A stretch of DNA of 64,000 nucleotides from an uncultured Candidatus Saccharibacteria bacterium (GCA_964428845.1 CAYRZH010000001.1:74990-138989); one strand, 5' to 3'. Shown: positions 1,352-10,414, counted from the stretch's first letter. Numbers and translations: made by a program. Notes: a model not told the origin generated them from the letters alone.

Positions 1352-1383
1352 AAAAAAGAGGCCACCCACTTGCGTAGATGGCC
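1352..1383 (-). terminator. Putative intrinsic terminator downstream of the DGR target gene
   Basis: On the minus strand, hairpin ggcca(N14)tggcc (1360-1383) is followed by a T-run (complement of A-run 1352-1357). Confidence 0.4.
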
Positions 1384-1444
1384 CCGAAATTCGCGAATTC
1401 AAGAATCAATTTTTCAAAAGATTCAAGAATTCAATGTGCAAGGA

Positions 1445-2257
1445 TCATTGCTTCCGAGCAGACGCCACACCAAGGTAGCCGACGCGGTCGCTGCCCCAGC
1501 CGTCGTTGACGACGAGCCCGCCCTGGCCGAAGCGGCCGACACAGACACGGCAGCCGAACGAGTCGAGACTGGATGTCCGAACGTAGATGTCTTCGAAGAG
1601 CCGGATACCACGAACTTCGAAGTAGGTCGTGATAAACCAGCTCATCTCGGCGGCATTCGGCACCTTCTCGAGTGCAGAGAGAAGCTTGCCCTGCTCGTTC
1701 CAGGTTTTGCTGGTCGAGTTCGAAACAACCGTCTTTTTGACCATGAGCCACCCGAAGGACGTCCTGTCCTCGCGAGCGAATTTCTGATCGGCATACCACC
1801 CACCCGTCTTCGAGTAGAAGTGGGCGGACTGGATCTCCCGAACCTCGAGCGTGGACATCGCTTTGGGCGGCGCAGGCATGATGGCGTAACCGTTGTCCTT
1901 GCACCATCTGAGCACATCTTCCGATGGCAGACTTCCGGCAAGTGCCGTGATCTGCTCATCGGTGTAAACGAGTGCTCCGCGAGCCTTGGTGACTTCCTCC
2001 GGCGTGATGAAATCCGCCCCGAGGATTGACTGCACCACACCGTAGTCGGGTGCTTTTGCCGAGAAGCGACGGATGCCTTCTGCGAGGTACGCAGCAAAGC
2101 CGCGATGCTCGTTCAGGATCTGTGCGCCTTTTTCGGTGAGTCTGGCCTTGTTGTATTGGGCGCGGAACAGTTGGACAGCCGTTTGTCCTTTGCGACTGTC
2201 TGCGGTTACCAATGCAGACGTGTTCAATGTTTTCGTTTTCATCGACATCATCTCCAT
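1445..2257 (-). CDS. DGR target (variable) protein with a C-terminal VR and an unknown N-terminal domain. The true start may be the downstream Met, giving MKTKTLN
   Basis: A 270-aa ORF about 60% GC in an otherwise AT-rich window. Its last roughly 38 codons (…RVCVGRFGQGGLVVNDGWGSDRVGYLGVASARKQ*) are the VR. The TR encodes …RVYVGNFDQNGLNVNNNWDNNRNDNLGVASARQS, so the Asn (AAC) codons have been diversified. Confidence 0.8.
   Translation of the reverse strand: MEMMSMKTKTLNTSALVTADSRKGQTAVQLFRAQYNKARLTEKGAQILNEHRGFAAYLAEGIRRFSAKAPDYGVVQSILGADFITPEEVTKARGALVYTDEQITALAGSLPSEDVLRWCKDNGYAIMPAPPKAMSTLEVREIQSAHFYSKTGGWYADQKFAREDRTSFGWLMVKKTVVSNSTSKTWNEQGKLLSALEKVPNAAEMSWFITTYFEVRGIRLFEDIYVRTSSLDSFGCRVCVGRFGQGGLVVNDGWGSDRVGYLGVASARKQ
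1454..1569 (-). repeat. DGR variable repeat (VR), 116 bp, at the 3' end of the target gene. The 3' 23 bp are identical to TR (an IMH-like segment, ccttggtgtggcgtctgctcgg)
   Basis: Hand alignment of the reverse complement of 1454-1569 against TR 2696-2810 gives 22 differences over 115 bp, every one at a TR adenine (30 A's in TR, 22 substituted) and zero at C/G/T positions. The ends are identical (tctcgact… and …ccttggtgtggcgtctgctcgg). Confidence 0.85.
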
Positions 2258-2297
2258 TTACTGATTTTCCGCAAACGTGCGGACACGACTGCCTCGG

Positions 2298-2349
2298 AAT
2301 GAGACGAGTTTTCTAGGGCCAGCTTAAGCCTCAAAAAACTCGTCTCATT
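2298..2349. repeat. Perfect 15-bp inverted repeat (aatgagacgagtttt / aaaactcgtctcatt) with a 22-nt loop, between the target gene start and TR
   Basis: Left arm 2298-2312 and right arm 2335-2349 are exact reverse complements. There is no flanking T-run, so it is not a canonical terminator. Confidence 0.6.
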
Positions 2350-2695
2350 TCAATAATCCTATTTCAAAGAATCTGTTTACATTGTATCAAACTATGGCCA
2401 GTTTGTCAATCCAAAAGAACGGCTCTAATGCTATACAATATAGCTATCTTGCTAATGAAGGCTAGGCCACGGTTTAGCCTCGCGAGATGCCTCATCTTTG
2501 AGATATCGTCAGAATGCCAGAGGTTTAAGGATCTTGGTAGAGTACGATCAAAGGTAGGGATTGAACTTCTTGCTCGCTTTTAAAGGAGATCTTTTATAAA
2601 AAGTGCTCTTAAATAAAATTCAGAAGTAAAAGGATATAGATTCTCTTGGAATAGTAAACCTTGAACTTCGGTGTCATGGACAAAGGCGAGCAACA

Positions 2696-2810
2696 TCTCG
2701 ACTCGAACGGCAACCGTGTCTATGTCGGCAACTTCGACCAGAACGGGCTCAACGTCAACAACAACTGGGACAACAACCGCAACGACAACCTTGGTGTGGC
2801 GTCTGCTCGG
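2696..2810 (+). repeat. DGR template repeat (TR), 115 bp, sense on the plus strand, the same direction as the RT
   Basis: Adenine-rich in AAC codons (encoded frame SNGNRVYVGNFDQNGLNVNNNWDNNRNDNLGVASARQ). It is the cognate of VR, with mismatches only at adenines. Confidence 0.85.
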
Positions 2811-2860
2811 CAGTCATCCTCCTTACCATAAGAAATTCTCATCATCCGATGGGAATTTCT

Positions 2861-3211
2861 TTATATGTTTTTTGAAGACCTTAGCCAACCCCCAAGCATT
2901 CTTCCGATTTCATCTACTCCCTCCTCAAAAACGATGTATCTCTTAGTATCAATTGCTCTTGTGTCCTTAGCAAGACGAATGAAGACCCTTAGAAGATTGA
3001 GTTTAAGACTAACCCTCTCTAGAACTTGCACTTTCGATAAACCCTTAGTTTGACTCGCCTGAAGTAGTCCCTCTATCACATCAAGCATATAGTTTTCACA
3101 TCGAATCCATACGGTATATCGGTCTTGTTTTGGAACAGAAACTCTAAATTCACAGAAGTTTTTATAGATTGTGTAGGATTTGTTAAATATCGGGATATCA
3201 AAATCATTCAT
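2861..3211 (-). CDS. avd: Accessory variability determinant (Avd)-like four-helix-bundle protein, also known as the 23S rRNA intervening-sequence protein family
   Basis: 116 aa, MNDFDIP…DRYTVWIRCENYMLDVIEG…RYIVFEEGVDEIGRMLGGWLRSSKNI, which resembles the Avd / TIGR02436 pattern F..L.VW……L.SQ.RRAA.SI..NIAEG……Y……E..KML.GLI.SL. I checked the start by reverse-complementing 3197-3211 to atgaatgattttgat. It is transcribed divergently from the RT. Confidence 0.6.
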   Translation of the reverse strand: MNDFDIPIFNKSYTIYKNFCEFRVSVPKQDRYTVWIRCENYMLDVIEGLLQASQTKGLSKVQVLERVSLKLNLLRVFIRLAKDTRAIDTKRYIVFEEGVDEIGRMLGGWLRSSKNI

Positions 3212-3213
3212 AT

Positions 3214-4287
3214 TATGAAATTATTTAATAAAACTTTTGAACAGATAACTTCTTCAGATAATCTTTTCTCAGCATGGGAGATATTTAAGGAAGATAAGAA
3301 GAACAAACCTGATGTCGCGAACTTTGGAAAAAAGATTGAAGAGAATATTTTTGAGATGCAACGCGAACTTAGAAACAAAACTTACAAACATAGTGTTTAT
3401 AGTGGTTTTTATGTTTACGATCCAAAGAGAAGACACATCCACAAGGCCACTGTTCGCGACAGAGTCCTGCATCATGCTATTTTTAGAGTTCTTAATCCTA
3501 TATTCGAGCCTACCTTCATTGCCCATTCCTTCTCCTGCAGGGTCGATAAAGGAACTCACAAAGGAGTAGAGATTCTCTCTGGCATGCTTAGAAAGGTTAG
3601 CAAAAATCTCACGAAATCTTGTTGGGCACTTAAATGTGACGTGAAGAAATTTTTTGACACCATTGATCACCAAATTCTTATAGAAATTCTGGAAAGAAGA
3701 ATAAAGGATCCGGATTGCTTGTGGCTTCTTGAAGAAATTATTGGGAGCTATGATACTGGAGCCGAGTTTATGAGAGAGAGAGAGAGAGTTTGGCGCTTCG
3801 CGCCAACAAGAAAGGGGTGCCTATTGGGAACCTCACTTCCCAACTCTTTGCCAATGTTTACATGAATGAATTTGATCAGTTTATTAAACATACATTAAAA
3901 ATAAAATATTATGCGAGATATACTGATGATTTTGTAATTGTCTCCGATAGTCGTGAATATCTGAACGGCTTGATCACCTCTATCAATAATTTTTTCGAAA
4001 CCAATCTAAAACTCAAGCTACACCCCGGGAAAATAGACATTCGAAAATATAAGAATGGTATTGATTTTCTAGGATACGTTATCTTGCCTCATTACAAAGT
4101 AATGCGAAAACGGACACGAAAAAGAATACTACGAAAATTTAAAACAAAAGTCCATGACTACCGACAAGGAAAAATTTCAGGAGAAAGTCTAAATCAGTCT
4201 CTACAATCCTACTTAGGCTCTTTATCACATGCAAACGAACACAAATTTAGTGAGTATTTAAAAAATCAATCTTGGTTTATTGATTAA
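3214..4287 (+). pseudogene. DGR-type reverse transcriptase, whose reading frame is interrupted at a (GA)8 tract. Segment 1 runs 3214-3865 in frame 2 and segment 2 runs from about 3784 to 4287 in frame 1
   Basis: RT motifs are present: SCRVDKGTHKGVE, ALKCDVKKFFDTIDH, GVPIGNLTSQLFANVYMNEFD (the DGR-specific I/LGxxxSQ in place of the group II intron QGxxxSP), YARYTDDFVIV (YxDD) and IDFLGYVI. Combined length is about 390 aa with no maturase or endonuclease domain. There is strong similarity to Bordetella phage bRT blocks, as recalled from memory. The two ORF-track pieces (3125..3865 and 3790..4287) are in different frames. Confidence 0.8.
3772..3806 (+). repeat. (GA)8G dinucleotide microsatellite (3772-3788) immediately followed by the perfect hairpin ttggcgc-ttc-gcgccaa (3790-3806) inside the RT gene. 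This is the site of the frame break
   Basis: Read directly from the sequence. One GA unit fewer, or a 1-nt insertion, would fuse the two RT segments into one frame. Confidence 0.8.
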
Positions 4288-4288
4288 A

Positions 4289-5416
4289 TTAGGTGAGCGA
4301 CTTAGAAAGTGCCTCCACTCCCGGCAATGTCTCATTCACCAAAAAGTCGAGCATCGCCCCTCCCGCAGTAGAGAGGAAGGTAAACTTATCTTCGAGCTCG
4401 AGGGACTTGATCGAGGCAGTAGTATCTCCCCCACCGACAATCGATTCCACATTTGATTCGGCGATTATTTTTGCTAGATTTTCGGTACTTTCGCGGAAAC
4501 CGATCTCGTAGTTACCTAGAGGGCCGTTCCACAGTACAAAGCGCGAAACGTCCACGAGTTCTCTAAGTTGAGTAACCGTAGCTGGGCCGACGTCCCAGAT
4601 AGAGTCTGTCGTTTCAACTTGGTCCGGCAACTTCACGAGTCTACCAATATCATTTTGGACAACAACATCGACAGGAAGGATGACTTTGCCACTTTCGAGA
4701 AGTTCCTTTAAATGGAAATCTCCTTCAGAAACCACCGAGCGGCCGACTTCAAACCCTTTTTCTCGGAAAAAGTTATTGGCTAGAGCTCCGCCGACAAAGA
4801 TATAGTTGGCAAGCTTCAGGAACTTGTCGATTGCTGGTATTTTGGTGTCGAACTTCGCACCACCCAGGATAAAAAGAAAGGGTTTTGCTGGACTAAATGC
4901 TCGAGAGAGATTTTCGATTTCCTTTTTAAAAAGAAAGCCGGCAAATCCAGGTATTAGTTTTGGTATTCCAACGATGGAGGCATGTTTTCTGTGAGAAGCA
5001 GAGAAAGCTTCGTTGACGTAGATATCACCGTACGAAGCAAGAGTTTTTGCAAAACCCTCATCGTTATCTTTTTCACCAGGATTCCTACGTAAATTTTCGA
5101 GAAGAATAATCTCGCCGTCTCCAATATCGGTGAGGGCTTGATCGAGCTCGGAAGATGGGTATTCACTGACAAATTTCAAAGGGAAAAAATTTTGCAGATA
5201 GATAGAGATTGGCTCGAGCGAATCCCCACCCTTCCCCTCTAGGTGACTGATGATAATTGTCTTCGCTCCAGCATTTCTCAGAAACTCAATCGTCGGAAGT
5301 GACTGCACGATACGAAAATCGTCGTCGATCTTGCCATCGATAATGGGCACGTTTAGGTCGAGTCTTAGTAAGATACGTTTTCCCTTAAGATTTCCGGCTT
5401 CGTTGATAGTTTTCAT
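4289..5416 (-). CDS. pgk: Phosphoglycerate kinase
   Basis: 375 aa; KRILLRLDLNVPIIDGKIDDDFRIVQSLPTIEFL… is a typical PGK N-terminal domain, and the Gly-rich C-terminal nucleotide-binding region is present. Confidence 0.9.
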   Translation of the reverse strand: MKTINEAGNLKGKRILLRLDLNVPIIDGKIDDDFRIVQSLPTIEFLRNAGAKTIIISHLEGKGGDSLEPISIYLQNFFPLKFVSEYPSSELDQALTDIGDGEIILLENLRRNPGEKDNDEGFAKTLASYGDIYVNEAFSASHRKHASIVGIPKLIPGFAGFLFKKEIENLSRAFSPAKPFLFILGGAKFDTKIPAIDKFLKLANYIFVGGALANNFFREKGFEVGRSVVSEGDFHLKELLESGKVILPVDVVVQNDIGRLVKLPDQVETTDSIWDVGPATVTQLRELVDVSRFVLWNGPLGNYEIGFRESTENLAKIIAESNVESIVGGGDTTASIKSLELEDKFTFLSTAGGAMLDFLVNETLPGVEALSKSLT

Positions 5417-6416: not shown

Positions 6417-7919
6417 CTAGAACTCTTCCCAAGATATGGTTGTATATTGGTCGGAGGTCAGTGGGAAGCTGGGCGGCGGGTTGTATAGAAGATTGGCATC
6501 GTAATTTATGGTTCTCAATACATAGCCAGAACCGTCGGTGTAGGCAAAACCATAACGCAGATATGTCGCAATCATGCCATAGAGCGTGATCGCTGGACGA
6601 GTGTGGTATGGAAAGCAGCGTGCCGTACCTCCTGCCGCAGGCCAATTGGCATTTGGTCGATAATAATATCTGCCGACTCTTCCATTTTGGGCGATCACTG
6701 CGGCGTCTATACGTAGATCATTTTTACTTACCATCCCCACATTTATATTATCTTGAGCCATGAGAGCCACGATGTCTTGACCGTCGTAGTTTGTATAAAT
6801 CAGGTCATTGTTTACAGTTATACTCGTCCTTGTGGCGGGATTGTCTGGAAATCTCCCAGAAGCGATAGTCAGACGCGCCGTCTCTACCTCTCCCTCGACC
6901 CAGACGTTGTCCTCGACAAAGATCAAACCATTTGTTGGGAAGGCATAAGTTTGTACAAATTGGGTGTTGTTCACACTCCAAGACCCCCAACCTGTTTGAT
7001 TTAGATAATTGGTACAACCAGTTGGTGGATTTACCAGAGAGGTAACTCTGTATAGATCAAATGTATCAGTTTTTTTGAGCACTATTTTATACCCAAGAAC
7101 CCCAGAAGCGGCAAAGTATCTGCCATTCGCTTGAGCATCGGTTTTTATCTGGGCAAGATCAGTAGTAAAACCAACGAAATCAACTGCCGGAACTGGAAAT
7201 TGCCGCCCAGCTTCAAACACATCGGCGCGGTTTGGCACTGGCGATGTCGGTGGCGCCTCAAGTGGTCTGAAGGTGTCATCTATTCCCGTTCCTGGTGGTG
7301 CATTGACGTGCGTATGCACACCAAACTCGTTGTTACCAGTATGATCAGGATCGTTATAGTCGGGTCGTGCGCTCGTGACCAGGTTGTGAGCAAGGCCATC
7401 GAAACGGATTCCCCCATTCGAATGGATTGGTCCAAAAACTTCAGTGCCCTGTCCAAAACGCATATCACTATTTGAAACAAATGCGTACTTAGCAAGAGAC
7501 GGCACAGCAAGCTTTGTTCTGACTTTTCTTGAGACCGAAGGTTCTTCGACCACCTTCCCCTCCGATTCGATGGTCACTATGGTCGATCCGATCGGTGGAG
7601 CAGTTATATTGAGCGTGAATGTACCGATAAGAACATCGTCTTTATCATAAAAATTGTGAACATAAGGACCCGGTTGGCCAGTACCATCCATAAAATCCTG
7701 TGGGGCATGCGCCAAGTGCCACCTGTAGTAATCAACACCAGATTCGGCAATCTGAATCGCCCGCTCACGAGAAACTGCCAGATGGGATGCTTTCATGTTT
7801 ACACCTGCCCAAGCCACGATAGCGCTTATGATCACAACAGCGACCCCGCCGAAAACCACAGCCTGGATCAAGACAAATCCGTTTTCATCTGAAATATTTT
7901 TTTCCCGAGATTTTTTCAT
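6417..7919 (-). CDS. Large pseudopilin / type IV pilus minor pilin-like protein
   Basis: An N-terminal prepilin-like segment (ENGFVLIQAVVFGGVAVVIISAIVAW) followed by a roughly 450-aa extracellular domain. It lies in an operon with pilB and pilC. Confidence 0.5.
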   Translation of the reverse strand: MKKSREKNISDENGFVLIQAVVFGGVAVVIISAIVAWAGVNMKASHLAVSRERAIQIAESGVDYYRWHLAHAPQDFMDGTGQPGPYVHNFYDKDDVLIGTFTLNITAPPIGSTIVTIESEGKVVEEPSVSRKVRTKLAVPSLAKYAFVSNSDMRFGQGTEVFGPIHSNGGIRFDGLAHNLVTSARPDYNDPDHTGNNEFGVHTHVNAPPGTGIDDTFRPLEAPPTSPVPNRADVFEAGRQFPVPAVDFVGFTTDLAQIKTDAQANGRYFAASGVLGYKIVLKKTDTFDLYRVTSLVNPPTGCTNYLNQTGWGSWSVNNTQFVQTYAFPTNGLIFVEDNVWVEGEVETARLTIASGRFPDNPATRTSITVNNDLIYTNYDGQDIVALMAQDNINVGMVSKNDLRIDAAVIAQNGRVGRYYYRPNANWPAAGGTARCFPYHTRPAITLYGMIATYLRYGFAYTDGSGYVLRTINYDANLLYNPPPSFPLTSDQYTTISWEEF

Positions 7920-8555
7920 TTAGAGGTTGTCTTTAAGATTCCTCACCGTCACTTGTGACGTCACCGTAAGCGGAGTCGGTGATCTATCTGGGTTTCTGTC
8001 TATTATCACATCTATCTTGATGAGTCTTACCGAAGGAATATTCACTGGTATAGGTAGAGATGGTGTGGATGTACCAGCATAATTGGTGTCGTAGTACAAA
8101 AATAGTGGTGTGGACGAGCTGTTTTTGATATGAGTGATTACGGTTGTTACAGTTTCGGTCGCCGCGTTGTAGGTGAGAGGATTACCTGTAGGTTTGATTA
8201 CGCCCTTATACAAATCCTCATCACGTAAATAATATCTAATTTGTTCTTTTACATTATCATTGTCTATATTTGAAAAAAAAGTGATGGAAGAAGTGCCAGC
8301 TTGGGATATCGGATAACCGCCAAGACTGGAAGGTGATGATTCTCTAAGTTCCGCAACCATAGTTTTCACAACTCTCCGTCCCTCCATCTGGGTATTGAGA
8401 TTTGCCTGTGTGATGTTGTTATAAAAAAATATATCTTTTTCAAAAGTAGTTACAGCAAGGATTATTACACCGAAAATCCCGATATAAACAAGCATTTCTA
8501 CCGCCGTGAAACCGCGAGCTAGACATTTTTTTGTGTTTTCTAAAAAAAAGGACAT
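7920..8555 (-). CDS. Type IV pilin-like protein (prepilin N-terminal motif RGFTAVEMLV). The ORF-track start at 8600 is probably too long
   Basis: A start at ATG (complement of 8553-8555) gives MSFFLENTKKCLARGFTAVEMLVYIGIFGVIILA, which is the G/FTxxE class III signal. This start avoids overlap with the upstream gene. Confidence 0.6.
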   Translation of the reverse strand: MSFFLENTKKCLARGFTAVEMLVYIGIFGVIILAVTTFEKDIFFYNNITQANLNTQMEGRRVVKTMVAELRESSPSSLGGYPISQAGTSSITFFSNIDNDNVKEQIRYYLRDEDLYKGVIKPTGNPLTYNAATETVTTVITHIKNSSSTPLFLYYDTNYAGTSTPSLPIPVNIPSVRLIKIDVIIDRNPDRSPTPLTVTSQVTVRNLKDNL

Positions 8556-8566
8556 AAAGTTTTCTG

Positions 8567-10414
8567 TTACGGCGAAAGAAATACCTCGAACTGTTGCCAC
8601 TGGCCAGACATATCGACCGTTCCGCTAAAATCTGCATAATTTTCTTTAGAAACATTGAGGTTATACATACCGGAACCGAGACCACTGAAAATGACCTGGC
8701 CGGGTGGAACACAGGCAGAAGTAAAGGTAAATGAAATATCTGAAATATTTGGGGTAAAACTCGTATTTTCTGTACTCAAATATATTTTATATCGCAAGAA
8801 CTGATCTCCGTTGTGAACTGGGTGGATATTTTGGTTAGCAGAAGTATAGAAACTTCCGGCCGTTCCATCTGGTCCAAGGAAGTTCCAAGTAGTGGTGTCA
8901 TTGTTTGTAGCGATCTGGAGTTTAACACTCCCTGCCCCGGTTGCCGGCGGCTGATCTATCGGCTGCCAAAATATCTGATGGAAATTACTTCCCGAACCTG
9001 TATCATATGTCGAAGAAATAAGACTCCCTTCCTCGTCGTAAGCCCCAAATGAGCCGTTCAGTTTTATCTCTCCGGCCGGATCATTGTTCTCTACCCTCTG
9101 TGAAGAAAAATACCTCGCTGGATCAGTAGACGTCCCTTGCCCACCACCGCTTGACCAGTCAGTCTGACCCAAGAAACCTCGCCCAGTTATGAGTGTGTTG
9201 TCGTAGCCACCCCCTTGACCCTCGAGGTGAACCGTCGAGCTCGCAAGTGGTAACTCTGTCGCATTATCCTTCACAATAACAAGTAAGCTCCTTGGGTTTT
9301 TTGGAGCAACTGTAAGCTGGAGGTCTTGGACACTGTTCGGAATGAGGTTCAGGGGAAAAATTGGGCTAGTGCCGGTGAGATCAAAACTCCCATCATTCGA
9401 CAATAGCGAGTAAGTGTCCCATTCAAGATTTGAAATTGTCTTTAAACCATCATCGTCTGTCATATGGTCCGCATCATATTTTAGGACATCTGGGTTGGTT
9501 CCGATAAGACGAGTCCCCCTAAGAGAAAAATCTATGTTGGGGACGGGAGTGCATGTCTGGGTTACTGAAGAAGCCTTGATCGTACTCAACCTATCTATAA
9601 CAAAACTAATCTGTGTTACTTGTTGAAGAACAACTGTAGCGTGCGGCACTACTGGATTTGGGTTACCTGCCGCACCCGGGGTATAAGTCCTGTCAGTAGT
9701 AAAACCTGTTTTGCTAACAGTAATCTCATAGGCGTTCACACCTGGTGGAGCATCTACGATCTGGAGCATGCCGCCAATATTCGTCGTGTCATCGATCACG
9801 ATCGCCGGTATAGCCTGGTTGTTTACGACGTGAACACTGGCGTCTGGGACTGGCTGGCCACTGGCATCGAGAACCTGTATAAAAAGTGCTCCGTTTGTAG
9901 AAGCGGTCTCAAGATTTTTCGGCGCAACTCTTGTGTTTACAAAAACAGGTACGAAGTTTTTACAACTAGGACAGTCGACTTGGATCTCCACAAGTCTGTT
10001 GTCAGCGGGAGAAAGATCATTTGGCTCACCGCCGATCGTCCCGTCAAACGGATCGTCGATGTTTCGCACGGTTGTAGTTACGATAAAAGTATAGCCACTA
10101 CGTACCAGCGTCTGGACCCGCGGAATTTCTCCTGCTGGAATACCAGCGACAATACCGACGTCCGCGTAAGGCATATTTCTTGCGATTTCAAACTGCTCAT
10201 TGGCCAGATCCATAGCCACTATCTTTGACCGAGAAGCCGATATGAGAGAGAAAGTGGTAGTGAAGGCTTCGTACGTGCTCATGGCCACAATAAGAAAAAC
10301 TGATACGCCGACCAGAAGCTCCACGAGGCTAAAGCCGCTTTTTGATGGGCCAGTGCCAGGCTTAAGCATATAGGGATAAAAATAGGTGAAAGAAGTTTTT
10401 TTCATAACGAACAC
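8567..10414 (-). CDS. Large pseudopilin / minor pilin-like protein (615 aa)
   Basis: N-terminal …SKSGFSLVELLVGVSVFLIVAMSTYEA prepilin motif (GFSLVE). Confidence 0.55.
   Translation of the reverse strand: MFVMKKTSFTYFYPYMLKPGTGPSKSGFSLVELLVGVSVFLIVAMSTYEAFTTTFSLISASRSKIVAMDLANEQFEIARNMPYADVGIVAGIPAGEIPRVQTLVRSGYTFIVTTTVRNIDDPFDGTIGGEPNDLSPADNRLVEIQVDCPSCKNFVPVFVNTRVAPKNLETASTNGALFIQVLDASGQPVPDASVHVVNNQAIPAIVIDDTTNIGGMLQIVDAPPGVNAYEITVSKTGFTTDRTYTPGAAGNPNPVVPHATVVLQQVTQISFVIDRLSTIKASSVTQTCTPVPNIDFSLRGTRLIGTNPDVLKYDADHMTDDDGLKTISNLEWDTYSLLSNDGSFDLTGTSPIFPLNLIPNSVQDLQLTVAPKNPRSLLVIVKDNATELPLASSTVHLEGQGGGYDNTLITGRGFLGQTDWSSGGGQGTSTDPARYFSSQRVENNDPAGEIKLNGSFGAYDEEGSLISSTYDTGSGSNFHQIFWQPIDQPPATGAGSVKLQIATNNDTTTWNFLGPDGTAGSFYTSANQNIHPVHNGDQFLRYKIYLSTENTSFTPNISDISFTFTSACVPPGQVIFSGLGSGMYNLNVSKENYADFSGTVDMSGQWQQFEVFLSP

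Follow-up and report, generated by a model that had tools for sequence, protein, structure and literature searches.

We describe a diversity-generating retroelement (DGR) of the architecture common in CPR bacteria, whose reverse transcriptase (RT) would be turned on and off by slippage of a simple-sequence repeat (SSR) within its coding region. We assign this reading a probability of roughly 0.78. In the 64-kb stretch of DNA analysed here (the window), the RT gene changes reading frame at a (GA)8G tract, and in related bacteria in-frame and out-of-frame alleles of such tracts were found in otherwise identical DNA.

Results

Adenine-specific variation and the parts of the retroelement

The features of the region are listed below.

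1358-1385, minus strand: terminator-like hairpin (12-bp stem with 7 GC pairs, then TTTTTTAATA) closing the target transcript
1386-1447, minus strand: six YTTGM (cTTGa-like) motifs spaced at 7-9 nt, lying after the target stop codon and before the terminator
1445-2257, minus strand: target gene (270 aa if the first ATG is used) of an unannotated family conserved in Patescibacteria; 58% GC in a 44% GC window
1454-1569, minus strand: VR, the 3′ end of the target ORF, stopping three codons short of the stop codon (1445-1447); 22-23 mismatches to TR, all at TR adenines
2381-2409, minus strand: sigma-70-like promoter of the target gene (TTGACA, 17 nt, TACAAT, TG-extended; 11 of 12 consensus matches)
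2446-2694, plus strand: structured 5′ domain of the TR RNA, conserved in 14 loci, with covariation
2695-2810, plus strand: TR, with 31 A in 116 nt and, when read in the frame of VR, 11 AAC codons
2811-2863, plus strand: 3′ tail of the TR RNA, containing CCTCCTTACC (2818-2827), which base-pairs with the domain upstream; helices 6 and 18 covary
2830-2861, plus strand: predicted terminator (hairpin of 13-14 bp and T-rich run), adjoining the avd stop codon
2861-3211, minus strand: avd (accessory variability determinant), 116 aa, divergent from RT, the start codons 3 nt apart
3215-3771, plus strand: N-terminal part of RT
3772-3788, plus strand: (GA)8G simple-sequence repeat, at which the frame changes
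3774-4287, plus strand: C-terminal part of RT in the -1 frame (listed as ORF 3790-4287), with motif 4 (GVPIGNLTSQ), YTDD and thumb
3789-3805, plus strand: perfect hairpin TTGGCGC-TTC-GCGCCAA, directly 3′ of the repeat

TR (2696-2810, plus strand) and VR (1569-1454, minus strand) were aligned over 115 nt without gaps. All 22 mismatches fell on TR adenines, 22 of the 30 A and none of the 85 other positions being changed, for which the chance is about (30/115)^22, or roughly 1e-13. With one more A mismatch, at 2695, the pair becomes 116 nt long and the count 23 of 31 A. The GC-rich 3′ block of 23 nt is identical in TR and VR, and the two sequences diverge immediately past 2810 and 1454. The first-pass annotation of this DNA had reported the same adenine-only alignment, the identical block and the placement of VR at the 3′ end of ORF 1445-2257 (minus strand); re-alignment reproduced all of these exactly, with none of the non-adenine mismatches that it had named as evidence against a DGR. 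No second VR was found in a scan of the full 64-kb window.

The 116-aa gene between TR and RT, proposed earlier to be Avd-like, was confirmed by its match to Pfam PF22296 bAvd (56 bits, cutoff 40, E 6.6e-15); it scored 74.9 bits against NF033474 DivGenRetAVD, just under the cutoff of 80.

The N-terminal RT frame continues to a TGA stop at 3863-3865 (ORF 3215-3865), giving a truncated product of 216 aa. It can be joined to the C-terminal frame only within the (GA)8G tract or the palindrome that follows it, and removal of one GA unit or addition of two yields an RT ORF of 356 or 359 aa. The tract is the sole dinucleotide repeat of at least five units in the 64-kb window. Together, the (GA)n repeat and the hairpin encode an insertion of 18 residues before motif 4. 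When the repaired RT was compared with PDB chains, residues 7-351 aligned end to end with the 328-aa chain 8ub7_A (E 3e-45), which we take to be Bordetella phage bRT; group II intron RTs matched at 7e-23 and retron RTs at 6e-5. The assignment to the DGR class is based on this PDB-chain match and on the motifs (I/LGxxxSQ in motif 4, and YxDD) of an RT that has neither a maturase nor an endonuclease domain, Pfam and NCBIfam being without an HMM specific to DGR RTs. The DGR-type motifs had been seen in the first-pass annotation, and the closer similarity to group II intron or retron RTs that it had named as counting against its claim was not found. It had missed the frameshift at (GA)8, and the RT is not one ORF.

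Judged from its sequence, the region is a real diversity-generating retroelement, because the mismatches are adenine-specific, the accessory protein beside TR and RT (Avd or HRDC in DGRs) is present as Avd, and the repaired RT best matches 8ub7_A. The earlier description of the DGR as complete holds for the parts list (target, VR, TR, avd and RT) but not for the RT gene, which is not intact in this assembly. The cassette is therefore not complete as read, since the RT lies in two reading frames and the intact RT ORF of a DGR is obtained only through the (GA)8G tract.

The target gene and its flanks

The target protein has a database copy (P0001, NCBI source) of 265 aa, which fits a start at 2242. 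It belongs to a large conserved family, which the first-pass annotation overlooked; at E <= 1e-3, a search of the protein database gave 368 relatives. The protein gave no match in Pfam, NCBIfam, PDB sequence or PDB profile searches, and its structure gave no Foldseek match against the PDB. Pfam matches of single family members (Aldo_ket_red and others) were rejected as noise (E >= 0.005). Within 90%-identity clusters, the hypervariable columns of the family are confined to the VR region.

Two conserved elements lie 3′ of VR but not of TR. The hairpin equivalent to that at 1358-1385 shows covariation in relatives. The cTTGa array is found in the window and in nearly all relatives, commonly with 8,8,9,8 spacing; it is absent 3′ of TR and is kept even at loci where neither an RT nor a TR lies within 6 kb. 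One role it could have is to label the VR side for the homing of cDNA.

A structured RNA that carries TR

Covariation supports the placement of TR on a structured RNA of its own, about 415 nt long, which the first-pass annotation overlooked. Over the whole RNA, 116 pairs were defined, and 96% of cells were paired across 14 loci. Compensatory changes were present in 37 pairs, compared with 15 +/- 2.7 in shuffles (0 of 500 reaching this value) and 7-18 in slid controls. They are located in the 5′ domain and the terminator hairpin, not in TR, and long-range helices link the 5′ domain to the segments immediately 5′ and 3′ of TR. No Rfam family matched in the region.

ON and OFF alleles within populations

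One related population was represented by 12 independent assemblies, in which 1073 nt of RT flank were 100% identical. The tract was (GA)15G in four of them (31 nt, in frame, 360 aa) and (GA)16G in the other eight (33 nt, split into 218 and 143 aa). In the 3 kb upstream the 12 assemblies differed almost only in VR, and 27 of the 31 polymorphic positions were TR adenines. A poly-G lineage gave a similar picture in eight assemblies, with G9 as ON and G10 as OFF and an identical 3′ flank of 480 nt. VR haplotypes in relatives vary at TR-adenine positions, and the RT gene has two properties of an SSR phase-variable gene: the length of its repeat unit is not divisible by three and conserved ORFs lie on both sides, and in the relatives tracts of different length give ON as well as OFF alleles in DNA that is otherwise the same.

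The window's RT copy is best read as the OFF phase, (GA)7 or (GA)10 being the predicted ON lengths; the (GA)8 length is that of one assembly. The proteins of the window had no exact copies in other assemblies and were singletons in the protein collection.

The repeat and the RT frame across relatives

In a sample of relatives' DNA, all 69 RTs without a repeat at the site were in frame (ORFs of 333-352 aa), whereas of the 20 RTs that carried a (GA)n tract of 11-51 nt just two were in frame, and the single poly-G RT was not. The frame break therefore goes with the repeat and not with assembly quality. Among the nearest 120 protein-cluster representatives of the RT N half, 76 carried (RE)n and 12 carried GGG at the site, and none of these 88 read through it. 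Single 90%-identity clusters contained all three frames, including full-length alleles of 354-360 aa; counted by contigs within clusters, the in-frame share was roughly 12%. In an NJ tree the GA-bearing RTs were dispersed at 10 or more places among repeat-free RTs, and other members had a second poly-G site after YxDD. The hosts of the relatives are represented by Paceibacteria, Taylorbacteria and Kaiserbacteria MAGs.

Both halves of the RT are under strong purifying selection. At dS 0.34-1.3, dN/dS in relatives lay between 0.02 and 0.07 in the N half and between 0.007 and 0.046 in the C half, and no stop occurred in 156 codons of the C half in any of nine repeat-bearing relatives. The RTs are therefore not pseudogenes. 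Every relative with an out-of-frame RT keeps a TR with A-only mismatches to its own VR, which suggests past activity.

Alternative explanations

Programmed recoding is the strongest alternative, and we regard it as unlikely. The out-of-frame arrangement would be the normal expression state, and RNA polymerase or the ribosome would re-read or skip one GA, aided by the hairpin, to give a low, set level of full-length RT, much as in gag-pol or the IS3 transposases; such recoding could coexist with switching at the DNA level. It would account for the large out-of-frame share (about 90%) among repeat-bearing RTs in consensus assemblies, and a 2-nt slip on a GA repeat should allow perfect re-pairing of both tRNAs. 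Among the out-of-frame alleles, which are not phylogenetically independent, 15 of 19 need one GA unit more, equivalent to a -2 slip, and four, the window among them, need one fewer. This skew is not predicted by unbiased switching, and so could reflect selection for OFF or partial rescue by transcriptional or ribosomal slippage. Directly 3′ of the tract there is a stem-loop in the window and, with differing sequences (L007, L096, L044 and the L001 group), in about 12 of 20 relatives, but the z-scores are modest (-3.1 to +0.9).

Against recoding, both wrong frames (offset 1 and offset 2) occur, so that no single shift direction serves all members, and the window requires the correction opposite to that of the majority. 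Neither the constant direction nor the conserved slippery motif of a frameshift site was found: 15 members need +1 and four need -1, over tracts of 11-51 nt. In-frame alleles coexist with out-of-frame ones exactly one GA unit apart in otherwise identical DNA, which a fixed signal does not need. We know of no established mechanism for dinucleotide-repeat slippage in transcription elongation, which also counts against this explanation. A particular candidate, a -1 frameshift at A_AAG_GGG (3807-3813), lies in the N frame of the window and would lead into K-GVPIGN; it fits the window and was rejected as a general mechanism, as most relatives need +1. Production of the RT as two polypeptides was also rejected, as the C-half frames have no consistent start codon and ribosome-binding site (in the L001 group, for example, the frame reads E-S-K-T-L..., with no ATG).

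It is very improbable that the repeats were miscalled in assembly or sequencing and that the RT is intact in the window and in the relatives. Dinucleotide repeats are error-prone for polymerases and on some platforms, and the window's tract was read from a single assembly, but tracts of 11-33 nt are well inside read length, and the agreement of eight independent assemblies from different samples on 33 nt, and of four on 31 nt, speaks against error. The 69 in-frame repeat-free RTs come from the same kinds of assemblies. Random error moreover predicts about one-third in frame, compared with 2 of 21 observed (about 10% of repeat-bearing alleles; binomial P = 0.013 against 1/3, with counts that are not phylogenetically independent).

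Least probable of all is a decaying retroelement, with the RT a pseudogene and the A-specific TR/VR differences a relic: most relatives share the frameshifted state of the RT in the window, and in one (L008) the RT is truncated after about residue 147, but the out-of-frame C halves are conserved at synonymous divergence up to 1.3, with no stops and no other indels in nine lineages, the sole lesion always lies within the repeat, and VR is still varying at the positions of TR adenines in a population with an OFF allele.

Discussion

A model for a proposed switch

The reading that we prefer is repeat slippage in the RT gene. The locus consists of a minus-strand target gene with its own promoter and terminator, followed by the plus-strand RNA of about 415 nt with the 116-nt TR, avd on the minus strand and RT on the plus strand. 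By homology to the Bordetella phage system, RT with Avd would copy the TR RNA to cDNA, misincorporating opposite adenines. The cDNA would then replace the final 116 nt of the target coding sequence and rewrite about 12 Asn-coded positions. The RT loop ahead of motif 4 is encoded by (GA)n, read as (Arg-Glu)n. Whenever a GA unit was added or dropped, presumably through slipped-strand mispairing during replication, a mechanism that like its rate we infer, the catalytic C half would move in or out of frame, and OFF alleles would make no active RT. Cells would thus alternate, heritably and reversibly, between a diversifying state and one that preserves the VR variant then present. The process may also involve the hairpin, the structured RNA and the cTTGa array.

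A wider reading extends the model to a clade of Patescibacteria DGRs, and we hold it, as a whole, somewhat more probable than its negation. The mutator would be under a mutable switch, with (GA)n or poly-G recurrently gained in the same RT loop, and lineages would at times try out new VR variants and at times hold on to one, most of the sampled genomes being one repeat unit from ON. In its strongest version the hairpin and the frame bias would make OFF a state of tuned low expression via -2 slippage. TR would be carried on a previously undescribed RNA scaffold, with a structured domain 5′ of the template.

Comparison with known systems

The element shares with the DGR of Bordetella phage BPP-1 (mtd, avd, TR, spacer RNA, brt) the adenine-specific TR-to-VR differences at the target 3′ end, the identical GC-rich block ending TR and VR on the 3′ side, Avd, and an RT with I/LGxxxSQ in motif 4 and YxDD that matches 8ub7_A end to end. 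Unlike in BPP-1, avd is inverted and lies between TR and RT, a large structured RNA domain is 5′ rather than 3′ of TR, and a terminator follows TR. The target here is small, has no signal peptide and belongs to an unannotated family, and is not a phage tail fibre; the RT has its 18-residue insertion before motif 4 and is out of frame.

In retroviral gag-pol and in orfA-orfB of the IS3 family, as here, the catalytic part of the RT or transposase is in another frame beside a slippery repeat and an RNA stem-loop. Those systems have a fixed heptanucleotide and one shift direction, whereas here tract length and the correction required vary and in-frame DNA alleles exist.

The likeness to SSR contingency loci of Haemophilus, Neisseria, Campylobacter and Helicobacter is in the non-triplet repeat inside a coding region with the ORF conserved on both sides, in a tract length that varies between otherwise identical alleles, and in the occurrence of both ON and OFF frames. 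Most of the contingency genes known so far specify surface structures or restriction-modification enzymes of host-associated pathogens. Here, the switched gene is a mutator, the DGR RT, in free-living or episymbiotic Patescibacteria of groundwater and soil.

The divergent-avd layout resembles architecture B3 of Wu et al. 2018, which in the available text of that paper accounts for 90% of CPR DGRs and is the usual one in CPR (PMC5758913). With CPR DGRs as described in the accessible parts of two surveys ('CPR set' B3, PMC5758913; DGR clade 2 of Roux et al. 2021, PMC8144416), the element shares host group, chromosomal location, a single nearby target and the arrangement of avd, TR and RT, and its target is without known domains, as are most CPR targets (PMC5758913). 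Those parts of PMC5758913 and PMC8144416 make no mention of an RT split by repeats, of a phase switch or of a structured RNA 5′ of TR. A non-exhaustive literature search found no report of a DGR with frameshift, slippage, phase variation or SSR.

Implications

Many CPR DGRs may be missed or misclassified, and elements like this one would be under-counted, in surveys that accept only an intact RT ORF. The TR RNA of about 415 nt, Avd and an in-frame RT allele would be compact enough for reconstitution in vitro. To our knowledge, targeted protein hypermutation is achieved in prokaryotes by no natural system other than DGRs, and little is known of how their activity is regulated. If the reading given here is true, heritable and reversible changes of repeat length in the RT would explain in a simple way how a large group of DGRs is regulated, and would amount to bet-hedging on mutability. 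It would help to explain why many environmental DGRs seem 'inactive' in metagenomes, and would place the logic of contingency loci outside host-associated pathogens.

The TR/VR pair and avd

The element is almost certainly a diversity-generating retroelement (DGR). Re-alignment of the template region (TR) with the reverse complement of the variable region (VR) was ungapped and gave 22 mismatches, which affect 22 of the 30 TR adenines. The first-pass annotation had described adenine-only differences, a pattern that any non-adenine mismatch would contradict, and it proved exact, with no change among the other 85 positions. If mismatches are assumed to be placed at random, the probability that all 22 fall at adenines is approximately (30/115)^22 = 1e-13. 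Position 2695 is a 23rd TR-adenine mismatch to the VR. As annotated, the VR closes the target ORF. TR and VR agree fully over their final 23 nt and diverge directly past 2810 and 1454. A scan of the whole 64-kb window, permitting any base at TR adenines, found no TR or VR copies beyond these two. The ORF between TR and the reverse transcriptase (RT) gene, previously described as Avd-like, matched Pfam bAvd (56 bits) and NCBIfam DivGenRetAVD (74.9 bits). The features of the locus are as follows.

1358-1385, minus strand: target gene terminator, predicted from sequence
1445-2257, minus strand: target ORF, ending in the VR (1454-1569)
2381-2409, minus strand: strong sigma-70-like target promoter, predicted from its sequence motif
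2446-2694: non-coding stretch directly 5′ of the TR
2696-2810, plus strand: TR
2830-2861, plus strand: hairpin of 13-14 bp with a T-rich tail, abutting the avd stop
2861-3211, minus strand: avd
3789-3805, plus strand: perfect palindrome TTGGCGC-TTC-GCGCCAA, directly after GAGAGAGAGAGAGAGAG

The avd gene begins at 3211 on the minus strand and the RT gene at 3215 on the plus strand, with 3 nt between the two starts (3209-3217). This junction, which leaves no intergenic room for promoters, is the same in relatives, and a terminator follows the TR.

The RT gene is split at a GA repeat

The DGR had been called complete. This holds for TR, VR, avd and the RT motifs, but not for the RT itself, which is split over two frames instead of forming one ORF. 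The frame starting at ATG 3215 stops at TGA 3863-3865, and the frame containing GVPIGNLTSQ (motif 4) and YTDD has an upstream stop at TGA 3771-3773 and extends to 4287. The two can be joined only within GAGAGAGAGAGAGAGAG (3772-3788) or within the palindrome at 3789-3805. The window contains no dinucleotide repeat with at least five units other than the (GA)8 tract. Removal of one GA unit restores a 356-aa RT, and addition of two units restores one of 359 aa. Residues 7-351 of the repaired RT align with the 328-aa chain 8ub7_A, which we take to be Bordetella phage bRT, with E = 3e-45. This is far ahead of group II intron RTs (7e-23) and of retron RTs, which score lower still, in agreement with the earlier assignment to the DGR type. 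Relative to 8ub7_A the RT has an 18-residue insertion, located exactly at the repeat and hairpin.

Read in the frame of the N half (the RT before the repeat), A_AAG_GGG at 3807-3813 (plus strand) matches X_XXY_YYZ, the form of a -1 slippery heptamer, and a shift there would continue as K-GVPIGN. The sequence is a product of conserved Lys-Gly codons. We rejected it as a shared slippery site because it is out of the right frame in most relatives.

Repeat-bearing relatives are mostly out of frame

The target protein, used as a probe, identified 30 loci from species-representative Patescibacteria genomes, and the RT N half identified 80 further loci from metagenomes. The frame status of their RTs is summarised in the table.

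Table. Frame status of RTs by sequence at the repeat site
No repeat (loop like SFE.SRPNLFE.RG-VPIGN): in frame 69/69
(GA)n, 11-51 nt: in frame 2/20
Poly-G (G10): in frame 0/1

The repeat-free RTs, with ORFs of 333-352 aa, serve as an internal control; as all 69 are in frame, assembly quality is removed as an explanation of the frame break. The in-frame share of repeat-bearing sequences is approximately 10% (2/21; P = 0.013 versus one third, for counts that share phylogeny). Among the 120 closest cluster representatives related to the N half in the protein database, 76 carried (Arg-Glu)n and 12 carried Gly-Gly-Gly at the site, and none of these 88 read through into motif 4.

On a neighbour-joining tree of N halves, GA-bearing RTs occupy at least 10 separate places among repeat-free RTs. 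Six database RTs without a GA tract (P0136, P0141, P0162, P0201, P0219 and P0239) have poly-G after YxDD (..SDNEYTLRGGG..) and end shortly afterwards, suggesting that this RT family has a second repeat site. The scattered positions of GA-bearing RTs, together with these poly-G tracts, indicate that repeats in the RT were gained many times or have long been kept. In one related locus, L008, RT homology ends after approximately residue 147 and is followed by unrelated sequence (~4450-4602); both its TR and its target are whole and mismatch at adenines only, and this RT may be truly disrupted.

Both halves of the RT are under purifying selection

Nei-Gojobori dN/dS was calculated among five relatives with a repeat, of which four are out of frame. 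The N half gave values of 0.02-0.07 and the C half (the RT after the repeat) values of 0.007-0.046, at dS of 0.34-1.3. No stops were found over 156 codons of the C half in nine repeat-bearing loci, and every such locus has kept a TR with adenine-only differences from its own VR. The purifying selection on the C half and its lack of stops therefore indicate that translation of this half in its own frame continued all the while these lineages were diverging. Low dN/dS in both halves, stop-free C halves and adenine-only TR/VR differences led us to reject the idea that these RTs are pseudogenes.

ON and OFF alleles coexist in populations

Single 90%-identity clusters contain proteins with identical flanks and varied (RE)n lengths, in all three frames and including full-length RTs of 354-360 aa. 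The DNA of one such pair was traced to 12 independent assemblies from several groundwater samples, which share a common gene neighbourhood. Their RT flanks (553 and 520 nt) are 100% identical and their RTs differ only in the tract, which is (GA)15G in four assemblies, giving one ORF of 360 aa (ON), and (GA)16G in eight, giving a split gene of 218 + 143 aa (OFF). In the 3 kb upstream, differences are almost confined to the target VR; 27 of 31 polymorphic positions correspond to TR adenines, and at least three VR haplotypes are present. The OFF allele is found with several of these haplotypes, one of which the ON allele shares. In a poly-G population with an identical 480-nt 3′ flank, G9 is ON (344 aa) and G10 gives a split gene in eight assemblies.

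The evidence best supports classical repeat-mediated phase variation acting on a DGR RT, and we put at roughly 0.8 the probability that the repeat switch is genuine and under selection in this RT clade. The window RT looks like the OFF phase of this conserved switch, one unit from ON, and most cells probably carry the (GA)8 allele of the window. A tract that grew or shrank by one unit would move the catalytic half of the RT into or out of frame, such that ON cells would diversify the VR and OFF cells would pass on a fixed VR.

Unbiased switching accounts neither for the low in-frame share nor for the finding that 15 of 19 OFF alleles, in counts that share phylogeny, would all be put back in frame by adding one GA unit. 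The low share would follow if selection mostly favoured the OFF state. The common correction, together with a stem-loop of differing sequence that borders the tract in the window and approximately 12 of 20 relatives, allows for some rescue of OFF alleles, in which RNA polymerase or the ribosome would read one GA unit twice. We treat such re-reading as the chief rival to phase variation, or as a complement to it. However, both wrong frames occur among repeat-bearing members, and in-frame DNA alleles are found beside out-of-frame ones in identical backgrounds. Re-reading is therefore not the whole story.

The TR appears to be carried on its own RNA

The ~250-nt non-coding stretch 5′ of the TR is conserved in all 14 DGR-bearing relatives, in either target orientation. 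The ~415-nt TR RNA (2446-2863, plus strand) has a predicted multi-helix fold of 116 pairs, with 96% of cells paired. Compensatory changes affect 37 pairs, compared with 15 ± 2.7 in shuffles (0/500) and 7-18 with slid partners. In two long-range helices, upstream segments pair with the sequences that immediately flank the TR on its 5′ and its 3′ side. The conserved stretch, the covariation, these clamping helices and the terminator hairpin thus suggest that the TR is carried on its own ~415-nt RNA with a structured domain upstream, whereas the structured spacer of the Bordetella DGR lies downstream of the TR. No Rfam family matched the region.

The target gene and its surroundings

At E ≤ 1e-3, the protein database contains 368 relatives of the target protein. 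The best 120 of these are 57-100% identical to it and contain no Pfam domains; 50 aligned relatives chosen from among them (57-81% identical) show that the family is conserved across Patescibacteria. The N-terminal 230 aa of the target had been described as lacking a recognisable domain or signal peptide. Pfam, NCBIfam and PDB sequence and profile searches with the target gave no annotation, and no signal peptide was seen. Within 90% clusters, only the C-terminal 40 residues contain columns with 5-9 residue types. The AlphaFold2 model was of moderate quality (pLDDT 69, pTM 0.62), with the VR at low confidence. A helical N-terminal domain followed by a putative CLec-like C-terminal domain is plausible.

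Between the VR and stop codon and the terminator (1386-1447, minus strand) lies an array of five to six cTTGa-like motifs, one every 8-9 nt. The array is found just past the target stop in nearly all relatives (L001-L025) but does not follow the TR, and it may act as a recognition element in cDNA homing. Fifteen genomes (loci L002, L005, L009, L014, L017-L024, L026, L030 and L031) have a close target homologue (≤80% identity) but neither an RT nor a TR within 6 kb of it, and the array is kept in all five checked (L002, L005, L014, L019 and L024). Either a distant DGR diversifies these homologues in trans, or they are undiversified.

Target GC is 54-61% (GC3 0.62-0.82) in the window and L001-L027 regardless of host flank GC (31-50%), compared with 36-37% for avd plus RT (window 2861-4287 versus 1445-2257). 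Target dS between loci (0.08-0.34) is far below RT dS in the same loci (0.4 to saturated). Together these values suggest that target plus TR were exchanged horizontally on their own, or that selection acts at the nucleotide level. A large serine recombinase gene (Resolvase, Recombinase and Zn_ribbon_recom domains; 6896-8227, minus strand) adjoins the target in L001, and the cassette flanks differ between the two loci compared (a HIT-like gene at 907-1302, pgk and tpiA in the window; RecG and Ddl in L001), hinting that the cassette moves. Downstream of pgk and tpiA, two adjacent window ORFs of 500 and 226 aa (6417-8600, minus strand) have N-terminal hydrophobic segments that, judged by eye, are like prepilin or pseudopilin leaders (e.g. 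..GFTAVEMLVYIGIFGVIILAV..).

Relation to known systems

The element fits the CPR group of DGRs. Its inverted-avd layout resembles architecture B3 of Wu et al. (PMC5758913), which makes up 90% of their CPR set, and Roux et al. (PMC8144416) place Patescibacteria DGRs in their clade 2. No description of a DGR with a contingency-locus repeat switch was found in the searchable literature, and the main work on CPR DGRs (Paul et al. 2017) may mention one. DGRs and contingency-locus phase variation are each known, and the RT repeat switch unites them. As a DGR, the element is nothing new in kind; the repeat switch in its RT is the part that may be novel.
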